Source of the DNA: an uncultured Steroidobacteraceae bacterium
Lineage (GTDB): Bacteria; Pseudomonadota; Gammaproteobacteria; Steroidobacterales; Steroidobacteraceae
Direction: 5' to 3'
Assembly: GCA_964658805.1 (NCBI GenBank)
Contig: CAZZZU010000003.1
Location: forward strand, 5,482-69,481
DNA length: 64,000 nucleotides
Shown here: piece by piece, positions 42,482-51,664 of the stretch
Layout of the letters: each line of letters opens with the position of its first letter
Position numbering within the stretch: position 1 is the first letter of the stretch
Position numbers and translations under genes: made by a program
The notes under the pieces: model-generated
The model's input: only the letters and a program-made list of their open reading frames with translations
What the model was told of the DNA's origin: nothing
The model's database searches: none

Positions 42482-43165
42482 GTGATGATACGCGATTGGT
42501 CCCGGCACGCCTTCATGCTCAATCTGAAACACCATCGTCCCTGGGATGCGCGTTTGGCGCGCTGGCTGGTTACGCCGCTCAGGGATACCCGTATCACGCC
42601 GAATCATTTGACTACGGCGCGTCTGTTCGTGGGTGTGGCGTCTGCCGCCGCCTTCGTACCCGGCACGTATGGATGGTCAAACCTGGCAGGGTTGCTGCTG
42701 GTGATATCCAATTTTCTCGATCACACCGACGGCGAACTTGCGCGTATCAGCGGCAAAGGCAGCCGGCTCGGTCACTATTATGATTTGGTCAGCGACGCCG
42801 TGGTCACCATCCTTCTGTTTGCCGCCATAGGCATGGGAGTTGGGGTGCGCTCGGACGCGGCATGGATGTTCAACCCGGTGTTATGGGGCGCATTGGCCGG
42901 CGCTTCCATTGCGCTGATTTTTTTCCTGCGCATGCGGATCGAGGCGGTACTCGGCAAGTCCGCTACTCGGCAGGCCTCTTTTAGCGGCTTTGAAACGGAG
43001 GACGTGCTGTATCTGCTGCCATTGGCCACCTTGTTCAACGGCCTGTCTGCATTGTTGATTGCGGCCGCGTTGTGCGCGCCATTGTTCGCGGTGTGGGTCG
43101 CCATAGACTACCGCCGCGTGATGGTGCGGCGCGATGAGTCTGTGCGTCCTGAGGTTTGGGGGTAA
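42482..43165 (+). CDS. CDP-alcohol phosphatidyltransferase-family enzyme
   Basis: Full signature D-x2-DG-x2-AR-x8-G-x3-D-x3-D (DHTDGELARISGKGSRLGHYYDLVSD). Multi-TM, 227 aa. Alternative starts at ATG 42485 and 42515. Confidence 0.85.
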   Translation: MMIRDWSRHAFMLNLKHHRPWDARLARWLVTPLRDTRITPNHLTTARLFVGVASAAAFVPGTYGWSNLAGLLLVISNFLDHTDGELARISGKGSRLGHYYDLVSDAVVTILLFAAIGMGVGVRSDAAWMFNPVLWGALAGASIALIFFLRMRIEAVLGKSATRQASFSGFETEDVLYLLPLATLFNGLSALLIAAALCAPLFAVWVAIDYRRVMVRRDESVRPEVWG

Positions 43166-43933
43166 GTGTCGGCGCGGCTTGCCGGCGGGCAAGTGCCCGT
43201 CGTGGCACCTTCGCGTTCGATGCCATTGACGCAAAGCTTGGCAACGCTCGACCCGCCTTCCTTGCGCCGGGAGTTTCAGCGTCAAGGGGCATTTCTCAGC
43301 CTGAGGCATTTCCTCCCCGTCGAGCTCACCGCCCAACTGGTCGCGGCTGTTGCGGCGGTGGAAGATGCCGTCAACCGGAATTATTTACCCGGCCATAAGC
43401 AGGGCGGCAGTGTCAGCCGTCATAGCATCGATGCACGGGCACCGGCCATCGCGGAGTTGTACCGCGCTCCCGCGCTGCTCGAATTCTTGAGCGCCGTGGC
43501 GGGCGAGCCGCTTTTCGTGTCGCCGCCAGACGATCCGCATGCCTATGCGCTGTATTTTTATACCCGTCCGGGCGATCACATCGGCTGGCACTACGACACC
43601 TCGTATTATCAGGGACGGCGCTACACGCTGCTGCTCGGTCTGATCGACCAATCCTCATGTCGGCTGGAGTACGAACTCCATACCCGCAGTCCCGGTGTTG
43701 CGCCGGTTGCGGGTTCAGTGGCAATCCCTTCCGGCGGGCTGGTGTTTTTTGACGGAGATTCACTACGACATCGTGTCACCCCCTTGGGTGAAAACGAAAA
43801 GCGCGTCTCGCTGACGTTCGAATATGTCACCAACCCGCGCATGCATGCCGGGTGGCGTCTCATTTCCAACATGAAGGACGCGGTGGCCTACTTCGGCTTT
43901 CGTCAAACGTTCAAGCGCTTGTTGAGGCGATGA
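43166..43933 (+). CDS. 2OG-Fe(II) oxygenase (prolyl-hydroxylase-like fold)
   Basis: HxD (GWHYDTS) and distal His plus basic residue (LRHRVTPLGENEKRVSL). GTG directly follows the upstream TAA; alternative ATG 43220. Confidence 0.72.
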   Translation: MSARLAGGQVPVVAPSRSMPLTQSLATLDPPSLRREFQRQGAFLSLRHFLPVELTAQLVAAVAAVEDAVNRNYLPGHKQGGSVSRHSIDARAPAIAELYRAPALLEFLSAVAGEPLFVSPPDDPHAYALYFYTRPGDHIGWHYDTSYYQGRRYTLLLGLIDQSSCRLEYELHTRSPGVAPVAGSVAIPSGGLVFFDGDSLRHRVTPLGENEKRVSLTFEYVTNPRMHAGWRLISNMKDAVAYFGFRQTFKRLLRR

Positions 43934-44916
43934 CCCGCACGGCGACGTGGCTCCTGAGCATCGGGCTGCTGCTCTTCATCGTCGTGATCGCCTCGCAGGG
44001 CCTGCCGGCAGTGCTGTCGACTTTGTCGCGCGCCGGCTGGGGACTGATTCTGGTGGCGCTCTTTCACTTGCTGCCATTGGTCATCGACGCGATCGCTATC
44101 TGGGTGCTGTTTCAGCCGCGGCTGCCAGGTGCTTTGCGAGACGCAGTGCTAACCCGCTGGGTGGGCGAATCTGCCAACAGCCTGATGCCCGGTGGCCAGC
44201 TCGGCGGCCCGGTGTTGATGGCGCGTCGCCTCGCGCAAAACGGCATGGCGTTGGAGAGCGCCGCTGCGGCCATTACGATCAGCACCACCATGCAGACCTT
44301 TGCTCAGATCGTTTTCGCGCTCATCGGTGTCGTTCTCCTGGGTGAACACACCGGGTTTTTGTCCGAGCAGGCATTACGTACAACGGCACTGGTCGCGAGC
44401 GCGTTCCTGGGAGTACAGGTGGTCGGTTTTTATCTGTTCCAGCGCCGCGGCATGTTCGGCAAGGCCACACGTGCCTTGACGCGCTTTTCACGCCGGCGCG
44501 ATTGGACCGACATCGTGAGCCGTGCCGAAGCCATTGATCAGGCCGTGCAGAATACTTACAAGCGGCCCGGCAGCGTTGGCTTGAGCTTTGGCTTGAACCT
44601 GGTCGGGTGGCTCGTCGGCGTGGGCGAGGTTTACCTGATCGCGCAGCTGCTCGGCACCCCGGTGAGCTGGGGCGATGCCGTGTTGCTCGAGAGTCTGGGG
44701 CAGGCAATTCGTGGCGCCGCGTTCCTGATTCCAGGTGCGTTGGGTGTGCAGGAAGGCGGCTACCTGCTGCTCGCACCCCTCGCCGGTCTGCCCCGGGACG
44801 CAGCGCTGGCATTGTCCCTCGCAAAACGTGCGCGCGAACTATTGCTCGGCGTACCGGGACTCATCTACCTGCATCTGGTGTCGCGCGGTAAGATTCGCAC
44901 GCTCTTAAAAACCTGA
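43930..44916 (+). CDS. lysylphosphatidylglycerol-synthase-TM-like (MprF flippase-type / UPF0104) membrane protein
   Basis: Starts at MTRTATWLLSIGLLLFIVV (ATGA overlap). About 8 TM. Conserved IPGALGVQEGGYLLL motif of the family. Confidence 0.75.
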   Translation: MTRTATWLLSIGLLLFIVVIASQGLPAVLSTLSRAGWGLILVALFHLLPLVIDAIAIWVLFQPRLPGALRDAVLTRWVGESANSLMPGGQLGGPVLMARRLAQNGMALESAAAAITISTTMQTFAQIVFALIGVVLLGEHTGFLSEQALRTTALVASAFLGVQVVGFYLFQRRGMFGKATRALTRFSRRRDWTDIVSRAEAIDQAVQNTYKRPGSVGLSFGLNLVGWLVGVGEVYLIAQLLGTPVSWGDAVLLESLGQAIRGAAFLIPGALGVQEGGYLLLAPLAGLPRDAALALSLAKRARELLLGVPGLIYLHLVSRGKIRTLLKT

Positions 44917-44919
44917 GGG

Positions 44920-45681
44920 ATGCGGATGCGGGCGATTATTTTAGCCGCGGGGCGCGGTACGCGCCTCAATCAAGCGGAGCATGAGCATATTCCGAAATGC
45001 CTGCTGCGGTTCGGCGGTATGACCCTGCTGGAGCGGCACCTGCGGTTACTGCGACAGTCGGGAGTTGAGGAGGTCGTATTGGCACTGGGTTTTCGGCATG
45101 ACCTGATTGCCGCGGAACTCGATCGACTGCGGTGGTCACCGCGGCCGCAGATCGTCATCAATGAGCGCTTCGAACTGGGCAGCGTACTCACGGCGCATGT
45201 CGCTGCGGAAGCGATGTGTCGCGGCGGTGACGTTTTGTTGATGGACGCGGATGTGCTCTACGACTCCCGTATCGCGCACGCCTTGACTGCCGGCACGCAC
45301 GCGGTGAATCGCATCCTGATCGACCGCGAGTTCGAGGCCGGCGATGAGCCGGTCAAAGTGTGCGTGCGCGAGGGTGTACCCGTCGAACTGCGCAAGCGCG
45401 TGGAGGCCGACCTACAATTCGACACCATCGGAGAATCCATAGGATTTTTTCGCCTGGATGAAGCGGGCGCCCGACGCCTGGCCACCCTGGTTGCGGCTTA
45501 TGTCCACACTGACAAGGCCGACATGCCGCATGAGGAAGCCGTGCGCGATTTCGTGCGCGAACGGCTTCATGTCGTCGAAGTGACTGACGTGACCGGTGCA
45601 CCCTGGATCGAGATAGATTTTCCGGTCGACGTGGCTCGTGCAGCGAGTCAAGTGCTGCCGCGCCTGCAAACCTTGGAGTAA
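44920..45681 (+). CDS. nucleotidyltransferase (LicC / sugar-phosphate NTase-like)
   Basis: N-terminal [12 protein letters not shown] nucleotide-binding signature; 253 aa. Lies 3 nt after the upstream stop, with a GAGGG Shine-Dalgarno. Confidence 0.8.
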
Positions 45682-45683
45682 AC

Positions 45684-47393
45684 ATGAACGCAACGGTCCA
45701 ATCCGCCTCAGCCTCTGATCCGGCACGCAGCACCGTTGCCCCGCGGCCGAGCCGTACCACTCAGCTGCGCCAAATGCTCGCAAGCCCGCAGCTCGAGTTC
45801 CTGATGGAGGCGCATAACGGCCTGTCGGCGCGCATCGTGCGCGAAGCGGGCTTCAAGGGCGTCTGGGCGTCGGGCCTGTCCATTTCTGCGCAGTTCGGCG
45901 TACGCGACAACAATGAAGCAAGTTGGACCCAGGTCGTGGATAACCTCGAGTTCATGGCGGATGCGAGCGATCTGCCCATCCTGCTCGATGGCGACACCGG
46001 CTACGGCAACTTCAATAATATGCGCCGTCTGGTGCGCAAGCTCGAACAGCGCGGCATTGCCGGGGTCTGCATCGAGGACAAGCAGTTCCCGAAGACCAAT
46101 AGCTTCTTGAACAGTGAGCGGCAGCCGCTTGCCGACATGGAGGAATTCTGCGGCAAGATTGCCGCCGGCAAGGACACGCAGCGTGACCCGGATTTTTGCA
46201 TCGTGGCGCGCGTTGAAGCACTGATTGCCGGATGGGGGATGGAGGAGGCGCTGCGCCGCGCCGAGGCTTACCGACTGGCGGGCGCCGACGGCATTCTGAT
46301 CCACAGCAAACTGTCCAAACCGGACGAGATCGTCGCGTTCGCGCGCGCGTGGGCACGCCGTTCGCCGCTTCTCATCGTGCCCACCAAGTACTACAGCACG
46401 CCGACCGAAGTATTTCGCCAGGCCGGCATCAGTACGGTCATCTGGGCCAATCATCTGGTGCGAGCTGCGGTGTCGGCCATGCAAAGCGTTGCCAAAGAGA
46501 TTCACGCGAGCGAAACCCTGGTGAACGTCGAGGACCGGGTTGCAGCGGTGAACGAGATCTTTCGTCTGCAGGATGCGGACGAATACACGGCTGCCGAAAA
46601 GCAGTACCTGTCGGCTTCGGGAGTGTCGCGTGCGGCAGTGGTGCTGGCGGCGAGCCGCGGCAAAGGGCTCGACGCCATCACGCAGGATAAGCCGAAGGTC
46701 ATGCTGCCGATCGCGGGCAAGCCGCTATTGCGCTGGCTGATCGACAGTTTCAAGAAAGAAAACATCAACGACATCACCGTCGTCGGCGGATATCGGGTTG
46801 ATGCCATCGACCCTGCCGGCATCAAGCTGGTGGTGAACGAGCGCTATGCCGAAAGCGGCGAACTGGAATCGCTCGCATGTGCGATGGACGCGCTCGATGC
46901 CCAAACGGTGATCTCGTACGGTGACATCTTGTTTCGCAGCTATGTATTGCGCGATCTGGCAGAGACCGGCGCGGATTTTGCGGTGGTGGTGGACTCGCAG
47001 CTAGCCGGTGCCGGCCATCACACGGTGCGCGATTTCGCGTACTGCTCGCGTGACGACGACCGCGGCCTGTTCGGCAAAAAGGTTTTGTTGGAGCGCATCA
47101 CGACAGCAGCCACTCGCGATACGGTCGGTACGGTCGCGGCGCAGGGCCGCTGGATCGGGCTGTTGAGCGTCAGCCGAGTGGGCCTCCAGCAACTCAAAAC
47201 CAAGCTCGTACGGATGCGCATGCAAGCCGACTTCGACCAGCTCGACGTGCCGGCACTGCTCAATGCGCTGATTGCGGATGGCGCGGCCATCGAGGTGCAG
47301 TACGTGCACGGGCACTGGCGCGGCGTCAATGATCTCGAAGACTTGCGGCGTGCGGTCGACTTTGCGCACACGCAAACGCCCTTAGGTACCTGA
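45684..47393 (+). CDS. aepX: phosphoenolpyruvate mutase fused to a C-terminal nucleotidyltransferase (PntC-type) domain
   Basis: N-terminal ~300 aa: [47 protein letters not shown]...[22 protein letters not shown]...[11 protein letters not shown] (PEP mutase hallmarks). C-terminal ~250 aa: [11 protein letters not shown]...[14 protein letters not shown] (NTase). Confidence 0.92.
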
Positions 47394-48550
47394 TGATAGC
47401 GGCGCGCGATTTTGTCGATGCGGCACGACTGCGCGGATTCGAATGGTATGCGGGCGTGCCGTGCTCATTCCTGACACCCTTCATCAACTATGTTTTGCAG
47501 GATGACAGCCTGGAGTATGTCTCCATGGCGAACGAGGGCGATGCCGTCGCGCTGATCGCGGGGGTGACGTTGTCAGGCCGTCGCGGCATCGCCATGATGC
47601 AGAATTCGGGTCTCGGCAATGCGGTCAGTCCACTGACTTCTTTGACCTGGACTTTTCGCCTGCCGCAACTCCTGATCGTCACCTGGCGCGGTCAGCCGGG
47701 CATCACCGATGAGCCGCAACACGCATTGATGGGTCCGATCACGCTCAAGATGCTCGACGCCATGGAGATACCGTGGGAGCTGTTCCCAACCGACGCCGCT
47801 GCCATCGGGCCTGCGCTCGATCGCGCTGTCGCATACATGCAGGCGCACGGCCGGCCGTACGCCTTGGTGATGCAAAAGGGGAGTGTGGCGCCGTATGAGT
47901 TGGCGGCGGGAGCCGATGCGATTGCGGCGCCAGCCGCACGCCCGGTGCCGCAACGCCGGCCGCCTCGCACCGCGGAACCGAATGACTCGCGCCATGAAGC
48001 CCTGCGCGAGGTGGTGGCACATACACAGTCGGGCGATGTGGCGGTCCTGGCGACCACCGGCTTCACGGGCCGCGAGCTGTACGCAGTGACGGATCGTGCC
48101 AATCAACTTTACATGGTGGGTTCCATGGGGTGCGTCGCGCCCCTGGCCCTGGGCCTCGCGTTGGCGCGCCCGGATCTGAAAGTAGTGGCGATTGACGGCG
48201 ACGGCGCGGCGTTGATGCGCCTGGGCGCAGTTGCAACGGTGGGTGCCTATGCGCCGCCGAATTTATGGCACTTGCTGCTCGATAACGCCGCGCACGATTC
48301 CACCGGCGGTCAGGCGACAGTATCCCCCTGCGTCGATTTTGCCGCGATCGCTGCGGCCTGCCACTACGCGTCCGCCACGGATAGCGAGGCCGCTTCGGAC
48401 ATCGGCGCATGGCTCGGCACGCGCAAGTCCGGACCGCATTTCCTGCGGGTCAGGATCCGGCCGGGCGCCGCGCCCGATTTACCACGCCCCGCGGTAACGC
48501 CAATGCAGGTCGCGGAGCGGTTCATGCGACAGATCGGCGCACGACACTGA
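47393..48550 (+). CDS. aepY: phosphonopyruvate decarboxylase (TPP-dependent)
   Basis: 385 aa. N-terminus FEWYAGVPCSFLTPF is typical of Ppd. TPP-binding region GSMGCVAPLALGLA...IDGDGAALM. Start shares 1 nt with the aepX stop. Confidence 0.9.
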   Translation: MIAARDFVDAARLRGFEWYAGVPCSFLTPFINYVLQDDSLEYVSMANEGDAVALIAGVTLSGRRGIAMMQNSGLGNAVSPLTSLTWTFRLPQLLIVTWRGQPGITDEPQHALMGPITLKMLDAMEIPWELFPTDAAAIGPALDRAVAYMQAHGRPYALVMQKGSVAPYELAAGADAIAAPAARPVPQRRPPRTAEPNDSRHEALREVVAHTQSGDVAVLATTGFTGRELYAVTDRANQLYMVGSMGCVAPLALGLALARPDLKVVAIDGDGAALMRLGAVATVGAYAPPNLWHLLLDNAAHDSTGGQATVSPCVDFAAIAAACHYASATDSEAASDIGAWLGTRKSGPHFLRVRIRPGAAPDLPRPAVTPMQVAERFMRQIGARH

Positions 48551-49620
48551 TGCTGCTGCTCAACCCGGGACCCGTGACGCTGTCAGAGCGCGTGCGCCGC
48601 AGTCTGCTCAATCCCGATCTGTGTCATCGCGAGAGCGAGTTCTTCGACTTGCAAACGGAAGCGCGGAGCCGCTTGCTCGAGGTTTACGAGCTGGACCCGG
48701 CGCGCTGGAGCGCCGTGCTCATGACGGCCTCGGGCACGGGCGCTGTGGAGAGCATGGTGGCATCGGTCGTGCCGCGCGACGGGCGCCTGCTCATCGTCGA
48801 GAATGGCGTGTATGGCGAGCGCATCGCACAGATGGCGCAGCAGTACGGCATTCGCCATCAACGTATGCAGGGCGAGTGGTTGCGGGCGGTGGACTTTGAC
48901 GCGCTGGCGCAGCAGCTGGCGGCCGCTGTGCAAGATCGCTTTACGCATGTGGCCGTGGTCCATCATGAAACGACGACGGGACGGTTGAACGATCTGCGGG
49001 AAATGCGCCGTGTCTGTTGCTCGCATGGCGCCAAGTTGCTGGTCGACGCGGTCAGCAGTTTCGGTGCGGAGACGATCGAATTCGATGCAACGCTCGCGGC
49101 CGTTGCGGGCACCGCCAACAAGTGCCTGCATGGCGTGCCGGGTGCTGCTTTCGTGGTGGTCAATCGTGATGCTCTCGAAACGACGGCGAGCCGAACCTAC
49201 TATCTGGACCTCTTGCGTCTGGCGCAGGCTCAGGATCAGCGCAACACGCCGTTCACGCCGTCGGTGCATGCTTACTATGCGCTGGTTGAAGCGTTACGCG
49301 AGTACGCGGATGAAGGCGGCCTGAGCGTGCGCCATCGGCACTACGCGGATCTGGCTGAGCAGGCCAGAGCCGGTCTTGCGGGACTCGGGATTGGCGCAGT
49401 GCTGGCGCCGGCGCAGTCCTCGGTGGTTCTGCGGGCGTACGCGTTACCGGCCAACTTGAGCTATTCGCAGTTACACGATGCGTTGAAAGCAGAGGGCTTT
49501 GTTATCTACGCAGGTCAGGGGCCTTTGTCGAAGACGTTGTTCCGGATCTCCACCATGGGTGCGTTGACGCGCGCTGACATCGACCGCTTGTTGAAATGTT
49601 TCGCCCGGTTGATGCGGTGA
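48550..49620 (+). CDS. aepZ: 2-aminoethylphosphonate:pyruvate aminotransferase
   Basis: Starts at MLLLNPGPVTLSERV. Class V aminotransferase with a PLP-Lys context (GTANKCLHGVPG). Start shares 1 nt with the aepY stop. Confidence 0.88.
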   Translation: MLLLNPGPVTLSERVRRSLLNPDLCHRESEFFDLQTEARSRLLEVYELDPARWSAVLMTASGTGAVESMVASVVPRDGRLLIVENGVYGERIAQMAQQYGIRHQRMQGEWLRAVDFDALAQQLAAAVQDRFTHVAVVHHETTTGRLNDLREMRRVCCSHGAKLLVDAVSSFGAETIEFDATLAAVAGTANKCLHGVPGAAFVVVNRDALETTASRTYYLDLLRLAQAQDQRNTPFTPSVHAYYALVEALREYADEGGLSVRHRHYADLAEQARAGLAGLGIGAVLAPAQSSVVLRAYALPANLSYSQLHDALKAEGFVIYAGQGPLSKTLFRISTMGALTRADIDRLLKCFARLMR

Positions 49621-50957
49621 CGTTGCGCAGTGCGCTCACGTGTGTTGCGCTGGCACTGGCGCTCGGGTGCATCGCGCCGCCCGTCTGGGGACAGTCGACA
49701 CCGGGGGATGCCGGCGCTCAGATTCCGGGTGGCCCCTTACCGGTCGAGGCGCCGGCCGCGGTGCCGCCGACGTCCTGGACTGCGTATCTGAACCCAAAAA
49801 CCTGGTTCAATCCGAAGACCGCACCATTCATACCGATTCCGGAAATCGCGGTGGATCCTGACAGCGGCACGACGCTGGGCATCATTCCGACATGGCTGCG
49901 GACCGATGCAAACAGCCAGATTCGGCAGATCATCGCCCCGGATATTCTGCATAACCCGTATTTCGGATGGGGCGTGCACGGCCGCATCTACTCTTATTCT
50001 TCGGGTGACGAGCAATGGTCTTTGGTGGCGGGCATCAAGGAACGGGTCGAACGCAAAGTCGACCTCGAATATCAGCAAGGCCGCTTGCGCGATTCGCGCT
50101 GGTCGATCAATTACAGCCTGCTCTACGATCGCGACGGCACGCCGCGGTTTTACGGTATTGGCAATCAAACACGCGGCGGCGCTGAAACCAGTTACACCAG
50201 CAATCGTGGCTTCGGTCAGGTACAGGTCGGATTCAACTTCACCCATGCGTGGCAACTGCTGTATACCGGACGCTATCAGGCGCTCGATGTGCTCCCCGGT
50301 TCGATCAGCGATCTCCCGAGCATCGAGCAACGCTTTCCGACCGTCACGGGCCTCGGCACCAGCAAGCAGTTCTTGAACCGGCTGAGCGTGATCTACGACA
50401 CGCGCGACGATCTGACCATCCCTACGCGGGGAATGAAGTGGGCGGTGTACGGCGGTGGTGCCAGCAGCCGCGGCCTGCTCAACGACACCATGTACAGCGA
50501 GACCGGCGTCGACGGGCGAATCTACTGGCCGCTTGCGCTCGATACGGTATTAGCGGGTCACTTTGCGTTGCGCTACCTGCCGTCGGTGCACGACGTGCCT
50601 TTCTGGGCGTTGAGCACGGTCGGCGGCGGCGAGAGCGAAATCGGCGGGGTAGAAACGCTGCGCGGTTATGGCGCGGGCCGCTTTTACGATCGCAACGCGT
50701 TCTCGGGCACGGTGGAATTGCGGCGCAAGGTCTATTCCCTCGATATCGTGAGCACCACGCTCGACATCGAGGTGGCGCCTTTCATCGATGTCGGGCATGT
50801 GTTTCACGAAACCAGTTCGTTGCCCTTCGACCATCTGCATCCGGTATTCGGCGTCGGTTTCCGCGGCATCGCACGGCCATTCGTGGTGGGATATGTGGAC
50901 ATTGGTCGCGGCAGCGAGGGCGCTGCAGTATTCACGGGACTCAATTATCCGTTCTGA
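49617..50957 (+). CDS. Omp85/BamA-family outer-membrane beta-barrel (surface-antigen domain), no obvious POTRA array
   Basis: Signal peptide (TLRSALTCVALALALGCIAPPVWGQ). Loop-6-type motif ETLRGYGAGRFYD. C-terminal FTGLNYPF. GTG 49617 overlaps the aepZ stop (GTGA); alternative ATG 49596. Confidence 0.78.
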   Translation: MTLRSALTCVALALALGCIAPPVWGQSTPGDAGAQIPGGPLPVEAPAAVPPTSWTAYLNPKTWFNPKTAPFIPIPEIAVDPDSGTTLGIIPTWLRTDANSQIRQIIAPDILHNPYFGWGVHGRIYSYSSGDEQWSLVAGIKERVERKVDLEYQQGRLRDSRWSINYSLLYDRDGTPRFYGIGNQTRGGAETSYTSNRGFGQVQVGFNFTHAWQLLYTGRYQALDVLPGSISDLPSIEQRFPTVTGLGTSKQFLNRLSVIYDTRDDLTIPTRGMKWAVYGGGASSRGLLNDTMYSETGVDGRIYWPLALDTVLAGHFALRYLPSVHDVPFWALSTVGGGESEIGGVETLRGYGAGRFYDRNAFSGTVELRRKVYSLDIVSTTLDIEVAPFIDVGHVFHETSSLPFDHLHPVFGVGFRGIARPFVVGYVDIGRGSEGAAVFTGLNYPF

Positions 50958-50977: not shown

Positions 50978-51664
50978 ATGAAAGAATTTAAATCGCGTGG
51001 ACGCACTCGGTTGCGTCCAACAGGCTCCATGTCGGTAACTCAAGTTTCGGCGCCGGTGATCCAGACGTCGCGGGTAACCGTGATGTTTGCGGATCTGCGC
51101 GGCTACACCGGTCTCGCCGAGCGGCTGGCGCCGGCGGCGGTATTACCCTTGCTGGACGAATTTTTTCGCCTGGTGGCCACAGCGATTGCCAACCACGGCG
51201 GTGACGTGTACCACATGGCGGGCGACGGCATCATGGCGGGATTCGGCGTGAACTCCAAACAAAGCGACGGGTCGCATGAGGCGTTGGCCGCCGGGCACGA
51301 GATGCTGCGTGCCTTCGCGCCGATCGCAGAACGATGGCGCGTCGAGCTCGGAATCGATTCCGGAATCGGCGTCGGTCTGCATTTGGGCGAAGTCGCAGTA
51401 GGGTCGCTGGGACCCCCGCGCCGCAAGAGCACCACGCTGGTGGGCGACACGGTGAACGTGGCGGCCAGGCTCTGCAGCCGGGCGCGAGCCGGCGAAGTGC
51501 TGTTCTCGTGCACGGTGGCCGAGGCGCTGTCGAGCAGCACCAATCCCCCTGTGCATGCCTCAGATGGCATCCCGTTTCTGCAGCTGCCGCAGTTTGAATT
51601 GCGCGGCAGGCGTGAGCCCATCGATATCTGGTGTGTGCCCGCCCCCGAGCGCGTCGCCCTCTAG
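50978..51664 (+). CDS. stand-alone class III nucleotidyl cyclase catalytic domain
   Basis: VMFADLRGYTGL (metal Asp), GDGIMAGFG (second metal Asp), GLHLGEVAVG, LVGDTVNVAARL (Asn/Arg). No sensor or TM domain; 228 aa. Confidence 0.8.
   Translation: MKEFKSRGRTRLRPTGSMSVTQVSAPVIQTSRVTVMFADLRGYTGLAERLAPAAVLPLLDEFFRLVATAIANHGGDVYHMAGDGIMAGFGVNSKQSDGSHEALAAGHEMLRAFAPIAERWRVELGIDSGIGVGLHLGEVAVGSLGPPRRKSTTLVGDTVNVAARLCSRARAGEVLFSCTVAEALSSSTNPPVHASDGIPFLQLPQFELRGRREPIDIWCVPAPERVAL

Follow-up and report, generated by a model that had tools for sequence, protein, structure and literature searches.

A Steroidobacteraceae operon of the Group 1 phosphonolipid family with an Omp85 partner, a removable phosphonate cassette and, in related loci, links to hopanoid operons

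About a third of the RefSeq neighborhoods of ppm, the gene for phosphoenolpyruvate (PEP) mutase (Ppm), fall into the Burkholderiales_CDP-OH group (318 of 882; Li & Horsman 2022, PMC8942020). As cited in that paper, the group corresponds to what Yu et al. 2013 termed "Group 1 phosphonolipids", and no product of the family has been reported since its definition in that year. Its seven-gene core encodes Ppm, phosphonopyruvate decarboxylase (Ppd), 2-aminoethylphosphonate (AEP) transaminase (AEPT), a 2-oxoglutarate (2OG) oxygenase, two PntC-like cytidylyltransferases, one of them fused to Ppm, and two phospholipid-type proteins; a phosphonolipid product is predicted, with the statement that no phosphonolipid has been characterized from the group (PMC8942020). 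In Nostoc and Burkholderia, this cluster had already been depicted by Gagunashvili & Andresson 2018 (PMC5987646), who gave the name hpnL to its membrane protein and suggested a pathway via CMP-(hydroxy)AEP with diacylglycerol (DAG)/AAG as the acceptor. Here, we describe an eight-gene operon (g1‒g8, positions 42482‒50957, plus strand) from an uncultured Steroidobacteraceae gammaproteobacterium; "the window" denotes the whole 64-kb stretch of DNA analyzed (contig CAZZZU010000003.1). Genes g1‒g7, gene for gene and in order, match the core of the Group 1 phosphonolipid/Burkholderiales_CDP-OH family: CDP-alcohol (CDP-OH) phosphotransferase, 2OG oxygenase, LPG-synthase-TM protein, free nucleotidyltransferase, Ppm fused to a nucleotidyltransferase, Ppd, and AEPT. 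The same order is found in B. pseudomallei, B. cenocepacia, Cupriavidus, Pandoraea, and Mycetohabitans (plasmid pBRH01), and the window operon is collinear with Mycetohabitans rhizoxinica pBRH01, B. cenocepacia, and Cupriavidus at 58‒73% protein identity. An initial sequence-only reading of this DNA had considered the gene combination unmatched by any genetically characterized system. While our literature search indeed found no experimentally characterized counterpart, the combination itself is catalogued (PMC8942020) and the pathway was already proposed (PMC5987646), and the inference drawn in that reading repeats a published prediction. Apart from its host, the locus differs from the family in that its lineage adds a POTRA-less Omp85 (g8), a Rieske protein, and an MMPL protein, which are absent from the Burkholderiaceae loci examined. 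The Omp85/Rieske association, the absence of the Ppm cassette from orthologous loci, the fusion to hopanoid operons, and the membership of g3 in the HpnL family are new here.

All eight ORFs (open reading frames) were confirmed, and neighboring genes are linked by 1- or 4-nt overlaps or by gaps of 3 nt or less, as claimed from the sequence alone. The stop codon TAA of g1 (43163‒43165) abuts the GTG of g2 at 43166 with zero gap, and g2 and g3 overlap by 4 nt in ATGA (43930‒43933). The gaps are 3 nt between g3 and g4 and 2 nt between g4 and g5; the g5/g6 and g6/g7 junctions each consist of TGATG with a 1-nt overlap, and g7 and g8 overlap by 4 nt in GTGA when g8 starts at GTG 49617 or by 25 nt when it starts at ATG 49596. 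These junctions were read off the nucleotide sequence, and searches with Pfam and NCBIfam profile hidden Markov models (HMMs) against curated cut-offs bore out all eight family assignments of the sequence-only reading. We consider it likely, at roughly 70%, that g1 catalyzes a Kennedy-type transfer of CMP-activated (hydroxy)AEP to a membrane lipid, with the HpnL-like g3 and the Omp85 protein acting downstream. We infer the substrates, the direction of transfer, the flipping step, and the outer-membrane role in this route as follows. The Ppm domain of g5, together with g6 and g7, would convert PEP through phosphonopyruvate and phosphonoacetaldehyde to AEP, as suggested by family scores above the curated cut-offs. 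The C-terminal domain of g5 and/or g4, both of the LicC/PntC type, would then make a CMP-phosphonate, by homology to the characterized PntC and LicC, and g2, a hydroxylase with the BesD fold, may hydroxylate a small amine; conversion of AEP to 1-hydroxy-AEP has been proposed in the literature. In the last step, g1 would pass the CMP-bound phosphonyl head group to a hydroxyl of a membrane lipid, and synteny suggests that g3 may translocate or present the product and that g8 may act at the outer membrane. All results are consistent with such Kennedy-like logic, in which PEP leads through AEP and CMP-AEP to a CDP-alcohol phosphotransferase and a flippase-like protein.

A survey seeded on g1, with one genome per GTDB species, yielded at least 565 relatives, and the best 80 loci (L numbers below) were examined. 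Whole-operon counts use the 65 loci with enough flanking sequence, and counts of upstream genes use 76. All eight genes occur in the same order in 39 of the 65 loci, so the arrangement is not due to chance. The g1‒g4 genes are contiguous in every locus with room for them but one, L030, which lacks g4. Fifty-nine of the 65 loci include the Omp85 gene. Immediately upstream of g1 lies a Rieske gene in ~31 of 76 loci, HpnA in ~10, an inverted MMPL gene in 7, and Omp85 itself in 6.

The AEP-forming enzymes are encoded by g5 (45684‒47393), g6 (47393‒48550), and g7 (48550‒49620). In g5, a PEP mutase (TIGR02320, 400 bits) with the 10-residue EDKxxxxxNS motif from residue 131 (46074‒46103) is fused to a C-terminal NTP_transf_3 domain (PF12804, residues 318‒439). 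The decarboxylase g6 scores 439 bits on TIGR03297 (cutoff 312), and g7, an aminotransferase of the AepZ/PhnW type, scores 379 bits on TIGR03301 (cutoff 361). The stand-alone cytidylyltransferase g4 (44920‒45681) belongs to the NTP_transf_3 family of MobA/LicC-type nucleotidyltransferases, and its best solved relative, aligned over the full length, is the AEP cytidylyltransferase Tde-PntC (6PD1). Its GRGTR is followed by PK after 9 residues, where the PntC signature tested was GxG(T/S)R-x(4-8)-PK, and the amine-contact positions are mixed, with Asp at the position of Tde-E104 and Glu at that of E196. For the C-terminal domain of g5, whose best solved relative is LicC, LAASRGKGL...KPK (residues ~318‒340, 46635‒46700) replaces GxG(T/S)R...PK, and Gly occupies the position of the conserved Arg. 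Since the variant LAA[SG]RG[KR]GL is conserved in ~60 loci, this atypical motif is probably functional.

A Ppm fused to a PF12804 domain with a second nucleotidyltransferase nearby is also characteristic of the Pnt/Lic pathways (PntC, LicC, LicD; PMC6697681), although these employ LicD where the present locus has a CDP-alcohol phosphotransferase, and glycan genes are absent here. Since PntC pathways elsewhere feed glycans (PMC6697681), CMP-AEP might be joined to a soluble or glycan alcohol, resulting in a solute similar to di-myo-inositol phosphate (DIP) or in the decoration of lipopolysaccharide, another glycan, or protein. A single-sequence search with g1 retrieved just two solved relatives, the membrane enzymes IPCT-DIPPS and AF2299, both of which act on soluble substrates, and an LpxD paralogue lies upstream in the window. 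This paralogue is specific to the window, however, and no glycosyltransferase, LicD, or polysaccharide-export gene was found in or beside the conserved module, whose conserved partners (HpnL-like, MMPL, and Omp85) are lipid-type membrane proteins. We therefore regard a non-lipid product as the least probable outcome, with only a slim chance of being correct.

The candidate head-group transferase g1 (42482‒43165) is a polytopic integral-membrane CDP-alcohol phosphotransferase with ~6 transmembrane helices (CDP-OH_P_transf, PF01066, 49.9 bits). The complete signature D80-x2-DG-x2-AR-x8-G-x3-D-x3-D noted from the sequence was found at 42719‒42796 (DHTDGELARISGKGSRLGHYYDLVSD), and it is invariant across 21 homologues. 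The possibility that g1 is an ordinary PgsA is ruled out by its score of 21.8 bits on the pgsA model TIGR00560 (cutoff 109) and by a separate housekeeping pgsA in the window (35505‒36101, downstream of uvrC). While the single-sequence search retrieved AF2299 and IPCT-DIPPS alone among solved structures, the family profile of g1 matched AF2299 (2e-8), DIPPS (2e-5), CEPT1 (1e-4), and CHPT1 (5e-4), with PIPS at 0.6. The profile is nearer to users of soluble CDP-alcohols than to users of CDP-DAG, which mildly favors a soluble CMP- or CDP-linked donor for g1. Both g1 and g4 match the NCBIfam model of the bifunctional IPCT/DIPPS, and among solved structures the Archaeoglobus fulgidus IPCT/DIPPS and AF2299 are nearest to g1; in this system, too, a membrane transferase is supplied with a soluble CDP-alcohol by a cytidylyltransferase. 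The similarity is nevertheless weak (38 bits) and far under the family cut-offs. In the present operon, the two activities are encoded by separate genes, whereas these relatives use inositol phosphates as substrates, and DIPPS forms a soluble osmolyte. The eukaryotic CEPT1 and CHPT1 share the superfamily signature and the chemistry proposed here, a CMP-linked head group plus a lipid alcohol, but they are very distant in sequence from g1, a bacterial protein of ~226 aa. Ciliates carry out CMP-AEP-dependent phosphonolipid synthesis, and eukaryotic ethanolamine phosphotransferases accept CMP-AEP with DAG.

The direction of transfer might also be reversed. In that case, g1 would be a phosphatidyltransferase with CDP-DAG as its donor and, as its acceptor, the 1-hydroxy-AEP that g2 produces, modified at the C1 hydroxyl, leading to a phosphatidyl-(hydroxy-AEP) with a free phosphonate, resembling phosphatidylglycerol phosphate or phosphatidylinositol phosphate. 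The best NCBIfam models for g1, archaetidylinositol-phosphate synthase (AIPS) followed by phosphatidylinositol-phosphate synthase (PIPS), are inositol-phosphate-accepting enzymes, whose acceptor alcohol with a neighboring phosphate resembles hydroxy-AEP, and the small-amine type of the g2 hydroxylase would suit this polarity. On the other hand, the two conserved cytidylyltransferases, g4 and the C-terminal domain of g5, would be left without a role, g4 is kept in every variant but L030, and PIPS is far weaker than the users of soluble CDP-alcohols in the g1 profile search. We consider the reversed polarity improbable and retain transfer from a CMP-linked donor as the preferred reading.

The oxygenase g2 (43166‒43933), of the HalD/2OG-FeII family, contains an HxD motif (H142-Y-D) and a distal His in R-H-R, and the HxD motif is conserved among all related loci. 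Its predicted structure (pLDDT, predicted local distance difference test, 88) superposes at a TM-score of ~0.70 on the group of free-amino-acid hydroxylases and halogenases comprising HalD, HalA, BesD, and a lysine hydroxylase. A halogenase of the BesD/HalD type was rejected since, despite the agreement in fold, the iron site has H-Y-D instead of HxG/A, which lacks the carboxylate ligand, and the conserved HxD motif identifies g2 as a hydroxylase-type Fe(II)/2OG member of this group.

The phosphonate genes proved to be separable from the rest of the operon. In 12 of the 65 loci, g1‒g4 are followed directly by Omp85, without Ppm, Ppd, and AEPT, and g4 directly precedes Omp85 in the absence of Ppm::NTP-Ppd-AEPT in L009, L011, L015, L025, L041, L047, L048, L050, L057, L058, L061, L064, and L067; L066 and L070 lack both the Ppm cassette and Omp85. 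AEPT alone is missing from 6 of the 65 loci. In the window, L022, L041, L052, and L058, tRNA-Cys(GCA) and tRNA-Leu(TAA) bracket the cluster, with uvrC-pgsA-tRNA-Gly located upstream, and these shared flanks indicate that the loci are orthologous, some with the cassette and others without it. In the g1‒g4 tree, loci lacking Ppm are scattered, and at least seven gain or loss events can be read. Ppm::NTP-Ppd-AEPT is a cassette open to gain and loss, with its own cytidylyltransferase domain, and g1‒g4 plus Omp85 (and Rieske) form the stable core. Since loci without Ppm keep g1‒g4 and the cassette brings its own cytidylyltransferase, the comparison suggests that g4, and perhaps g2, may serve a substrate independent of a local Ppm.

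Three side observations concern variants of the cluster. Ppm and Ppd occur without AEPT, with Ppd directly before Omp85, in L004/L008, L023, L031, L038, L052, and L083, which implies either a transaminase encoded elsewhere or another phosphonate such as hydroxyethylphosphonate. One metagenome-assembled genome (MAG), MFD05841.bin.2.159, contains two copies of the whole cluster (L034 and L037), one typical and the other diverged, with g2‒g6 36‒51% identical to the window and Rieske 86%. In the isolate Paraburkholderia solisilvae (L070, 13380‒14822), which has no local Ppm or Omp85, a major facilitator superfamily (MFS) transporter gene follows g4 and a HIT-family gene lies upstream, an arrangement that could serve the import of a head-group precursor.

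Several of these observations weigh against the Kennedy-type transfer of (hydroxy)AEP proposed above. The cassette is absent from ~15 orthologous loci in which g1‒g4 are intact and equally conserved, and no column-specific substitutions were found in g1‒g4 between loci with and without Ppm. Thus, unless AEP is supplied from elsewhere, it may not be the substrate of g2 and g4 at all, and the operon is less "wired" to phosphonate than the sequence-only reading had assumed. The top HMM of g1, AIPS, represents an enzyme with a CDP-lipid donor, while DIPPS and AF2299, its nearest solved relatives, take soluble acceptors, so that the donor, acceptor, and polarity of g1 cannot be read from its sequence. 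The structural model of g8 is poor (pLDDT 54), the roles of g3 and g8 are drawn from synteny and family names, and our literature search found no experimentally identified product for any member of the cluster family.

The family of g3 brought the hopanoids into consideration as acceptors. This polytopic, MprF-TM-like and flippase-like membrane protein (43930‒44916) has at least seven hydrophobic peaks and matches TIGR03476 (HpnL) at 307 bits (cutoff 195.65), TIGR00374, and LPG_synthase_TM (PF03706) at 106 bits. The canonical HpnL of Methylobacterium, which scores 337 bits on TIGR03476 and is 35% identical to g3, is encoded in hpnL-hpnM-hpnI-hpnJ, adjoining hpnN, hpnH, and shc, a context that groups HpnL with enzymes adding head groups to bacteriohopanetetrol (BHT). 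In both this locus, which belongs to the pathway for the BHT glucosamine/cyclitol ether, and the present one, the HpnL gene shares an operon with the gene for a head-group transferase associated with the membrane; this enzyme is the glycosyltransferase HpnI in the former and a CDP-alcohol phosphotransferase fed by cytidylyltransferases in the latter.

Hopanoid genes lie within 10 kb of the module in 13 of the 80 loci, where the module is fused to hpnH-shc-hpnG-hpnA operons. In L032, idi, HpnH, farnesyl diphosphate (FPP) synthase, squalene synthase, SHC, HpnG, and HpnA form a single co-directional array that continues, after 80 nt, with g1 to Omp85. In Mycetohabitans, a gap of 115 nt separates AEPT from dxs, after which come two hypothetical genes, an MMPL transporter gene, an HpnM-like binding protein gene, ispH, hpnH, hpnA, a glycosyltransferase gene, shc, and hpnD, and this MMPL protein matches the transporter of the Methylobacterium hopanoid locus. 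The six-gene core (g1‒g4, Omp85, and Rieske) of L011 and L025, which lack Ppm, is flanked by shc/hpnA/hpnH and dxs. The hopanoid array of L028 and L080 starts with the Rieske gene, an HpnN homologue adjoins the cluster in L051, and L072 has an HpnM-like gene. In the window, the Rieske [2Fe-2S]/VanA_C oxygenase (38984‒40144, plus strand; Pfam) recurs beside the module and is the best-conserved protein associated with it (77‒88% identity). Its best NCBIfam family is SdmA, a 4β-methylsterol monooxygenase (sterol C4-methyl oxidase), at 146 bits against a cutoff of 600, and HpnA resembles SdmB, the partner of SdmA. Linkage of shc and ppm in Roseomonas was noted earlier as an "undiscovered terpene-phosphonate" (PMC8776678), and "phosphonate-terpene" antiSMASH regions have been reported in Pandoraea and Nitrosococcus.

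In the Kennedy-type transfer that we prefer, the acceptor may accordingly be a bacteriohopanepolyol, which we hold at slightly short of even odds and favor slightly over the DAG of the literature. Somewhat more tentatively, the core may be a hopanoid head-group module in which aminoethyl-phosph(on)ate activated by CMP is esterified to one of the side-chain hydroxyls of BHT, and the Ppm cassette would then be an optional addition that switches the product from a phosphate ester to a C‒P phosphonate. For BHT-AEP, the [M+H]+ was calculated as 654.486, and for BHT-hydroxyAEP, which is isobaric with BHT-phosphoethanolamine, as 670.481. Against a hopanoid acceptor, no homologue of shc, hpnH, hpnA, or hpnN was found within the 64-kb window, a stand-alone gene for an "HpnL family protein" exists with no hopanoid genes 12 kb either side, and our literature search found no phosphorus-bearing hopanoid. 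In addition, the core has no hopanoid genes within 13‒20 kb in B. cenocepacia and Cupriavidus P-10, which argues instead for sn-1,2-diacylglycerol. A glycerophosphonolipid, the AEP or 1-hydroxy-AEP analogue of phosphatidylethanolamine, would then arise by a bacterial Kennedy-type route, as predicted in PMC8942020 and drawn with DAG/AAG in PMC5987646, and the g1 profile picks up the eukaryotic CEPT1 and CHPT1. However, neither Burkholderia nor any other host of the cluster has been reported to make such a lipid (PMC8942020), and both the HpnL-family g3 and the repeated fusion to hopanoid genes (hpnH-shc-hpnG-hpnA and Mycetohabitans) would be left unexplained. We consider DAG a serious but less probable acceptor, with the remaining probability left to other options. 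The Kennedy-like route to a lipid claimed at the outset is supported, while DAG is not required for it, and synteny ties the module to hopanoid biosynthesis.

Three testable leads follow from the comparison, namely an Omp85 partner apparently dedicated to the cluster, a phosphonate cassette that can be removed, and the repeated hopanoid-operon fusion, the last of which directs lipid analysis to hopanoid fractions and away from glycerolipids. If the hopanoid acceptor is correct, it would name the product of the commonest bacterial ppm neighborhood and give HpnL a function, and it would also matter for inventories of hopanoid biomarkers and for the biology of the cell envelope in Burkholderia, fungal endosymbionts, and lichen cyanobionts.

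The last gene of the operon, g8 (49596‒50957), encodes an Omp85-superfamily outer-membrane barrel (PF01103, 67 bits, residues 151‒410) with a signal peptide and the C-terminus ...NYPF. A POTRA domain was not detected in g8, as the Pfam scan gave PF01103 alone, and the BamA model scored 35 bits (cutoff 297); a BamA/TamA insertase was therefore rejected. In the low-confidence AlphaFold2 (AF2) model, β-strands begin at ~residue 70, and Foldseek with this model retrieved only Sam50, BamA, and TamA barrels at TM-scores of 0.33‒0.45. A profile search of the PDB with g8 gave zero matches. Omp85 homologues picked independently (60‒63% identity to g8) are all located in the same type of cluster, and the g8 subfamily thus appears to be dedicated to it. 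The link of the operon to Omp85 claimed in the sequence-only reading is supported by synteny, with delivery to the outer membrane as a putative role.

An inverted gene sits between the Rieske gene and g1 in the window. It encodes an MMPL/RND-type membrane transporter (40173‒42440, minus strand; PF03176, 261 bits), divergent from g1, and is a possible lipid exporter. Orthology to HpnN was rejected, as the HpnN model gives just 51 bits. The annotated start of the MMPL ORF and g1 are just 41 nt apart. The start of g1 is probably ATG 42485, and the database protein P0001 is identical to g1 (226 aa). The sole promoter-like site near g1, TTGATG-18-TAAAAT (42452‒42515), ends at the g1 start codon, which implies a leaderless transcript or a later start, such as ATG 42515; scans for promoters and terminators did not rise above background. 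For g2, the alternative start ATG 43220 is used in the database protein P0241. Downstream of g8, a class III nucleotidyl cyclase catalytic domain is encoded at 50978‒51664 (plus strand), immediately 5' of tRNA-Leu(TAA) (51719‒51805, plus strand), which marks the right edge of the region. We considered the cyclase as a ninth operon gene and rejected it, since elsewhere 2‒4 kb of variable genes intervene after Omp85 and the cyclase always adjoins tRNA-Leu; it is a conserved marker of the right flank and probably stands outside the pathway.

The left edge of the variable region with the cluster is tRNA-Cys(GCA) (36950‒37023, plus strand), downstream of uvrC-pgsA-tRNA-Gly, and this left flank (uvrC-pgsA-tRNA-Gly-tRNA-Cys) is common to L004, L013, L022, L041, L050, L052, and L058. 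An Rfam scan of the window gave three tRNAs and nothing else. Immediately after tRNA-Leu lies a PqiA-PqiB-PqiC operon (51810‒55347) for MCE-type envelope lipid transport. On the left, an LpxD-like N-acyltransferase gene (37093‒38172; 299 bits to PRK00892) overlaps by 4 nt with a 255-aa ORF without a Pfam or NCBIfam match (38169‒38936). PqiABC and, likewise, the LpxD paralogue with the 255-aa ORF were rejected as parts of the system, since they recur in 0 of the 80 related loci. The GC content is 0.56‒0.57 in the LpxD-like gene, the 255-aa ORF, and the Rieske gene and 0.60‒0.65 in the operon. The array uvrC-pgsA-tRNA-Gly-tRNA-Cys...tRNA-Leu(TAA) (35505‒37023 and 51719‒51805) is split between tRNA-Cys and tRNA-Leu by ~14.7 kb of cargo, comprising the LpxD paralogue, the 255-aa ORF, Rieske, MMPL, the operon, and the cyclase; the split recurs in several related MAGs, with cargo varying at both ends. 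The order of the array resembles the pgsA-glyW-cysT-leuZ of E. coli. With 715 bp in the window, the spacer between tRNA-Gly and tRNA-Cys (36235‒36949) is longer than in L004 (50 bp) and shorter than in L013 and L041 (both more than 1.1 kb), indicating a variable insertion spot.

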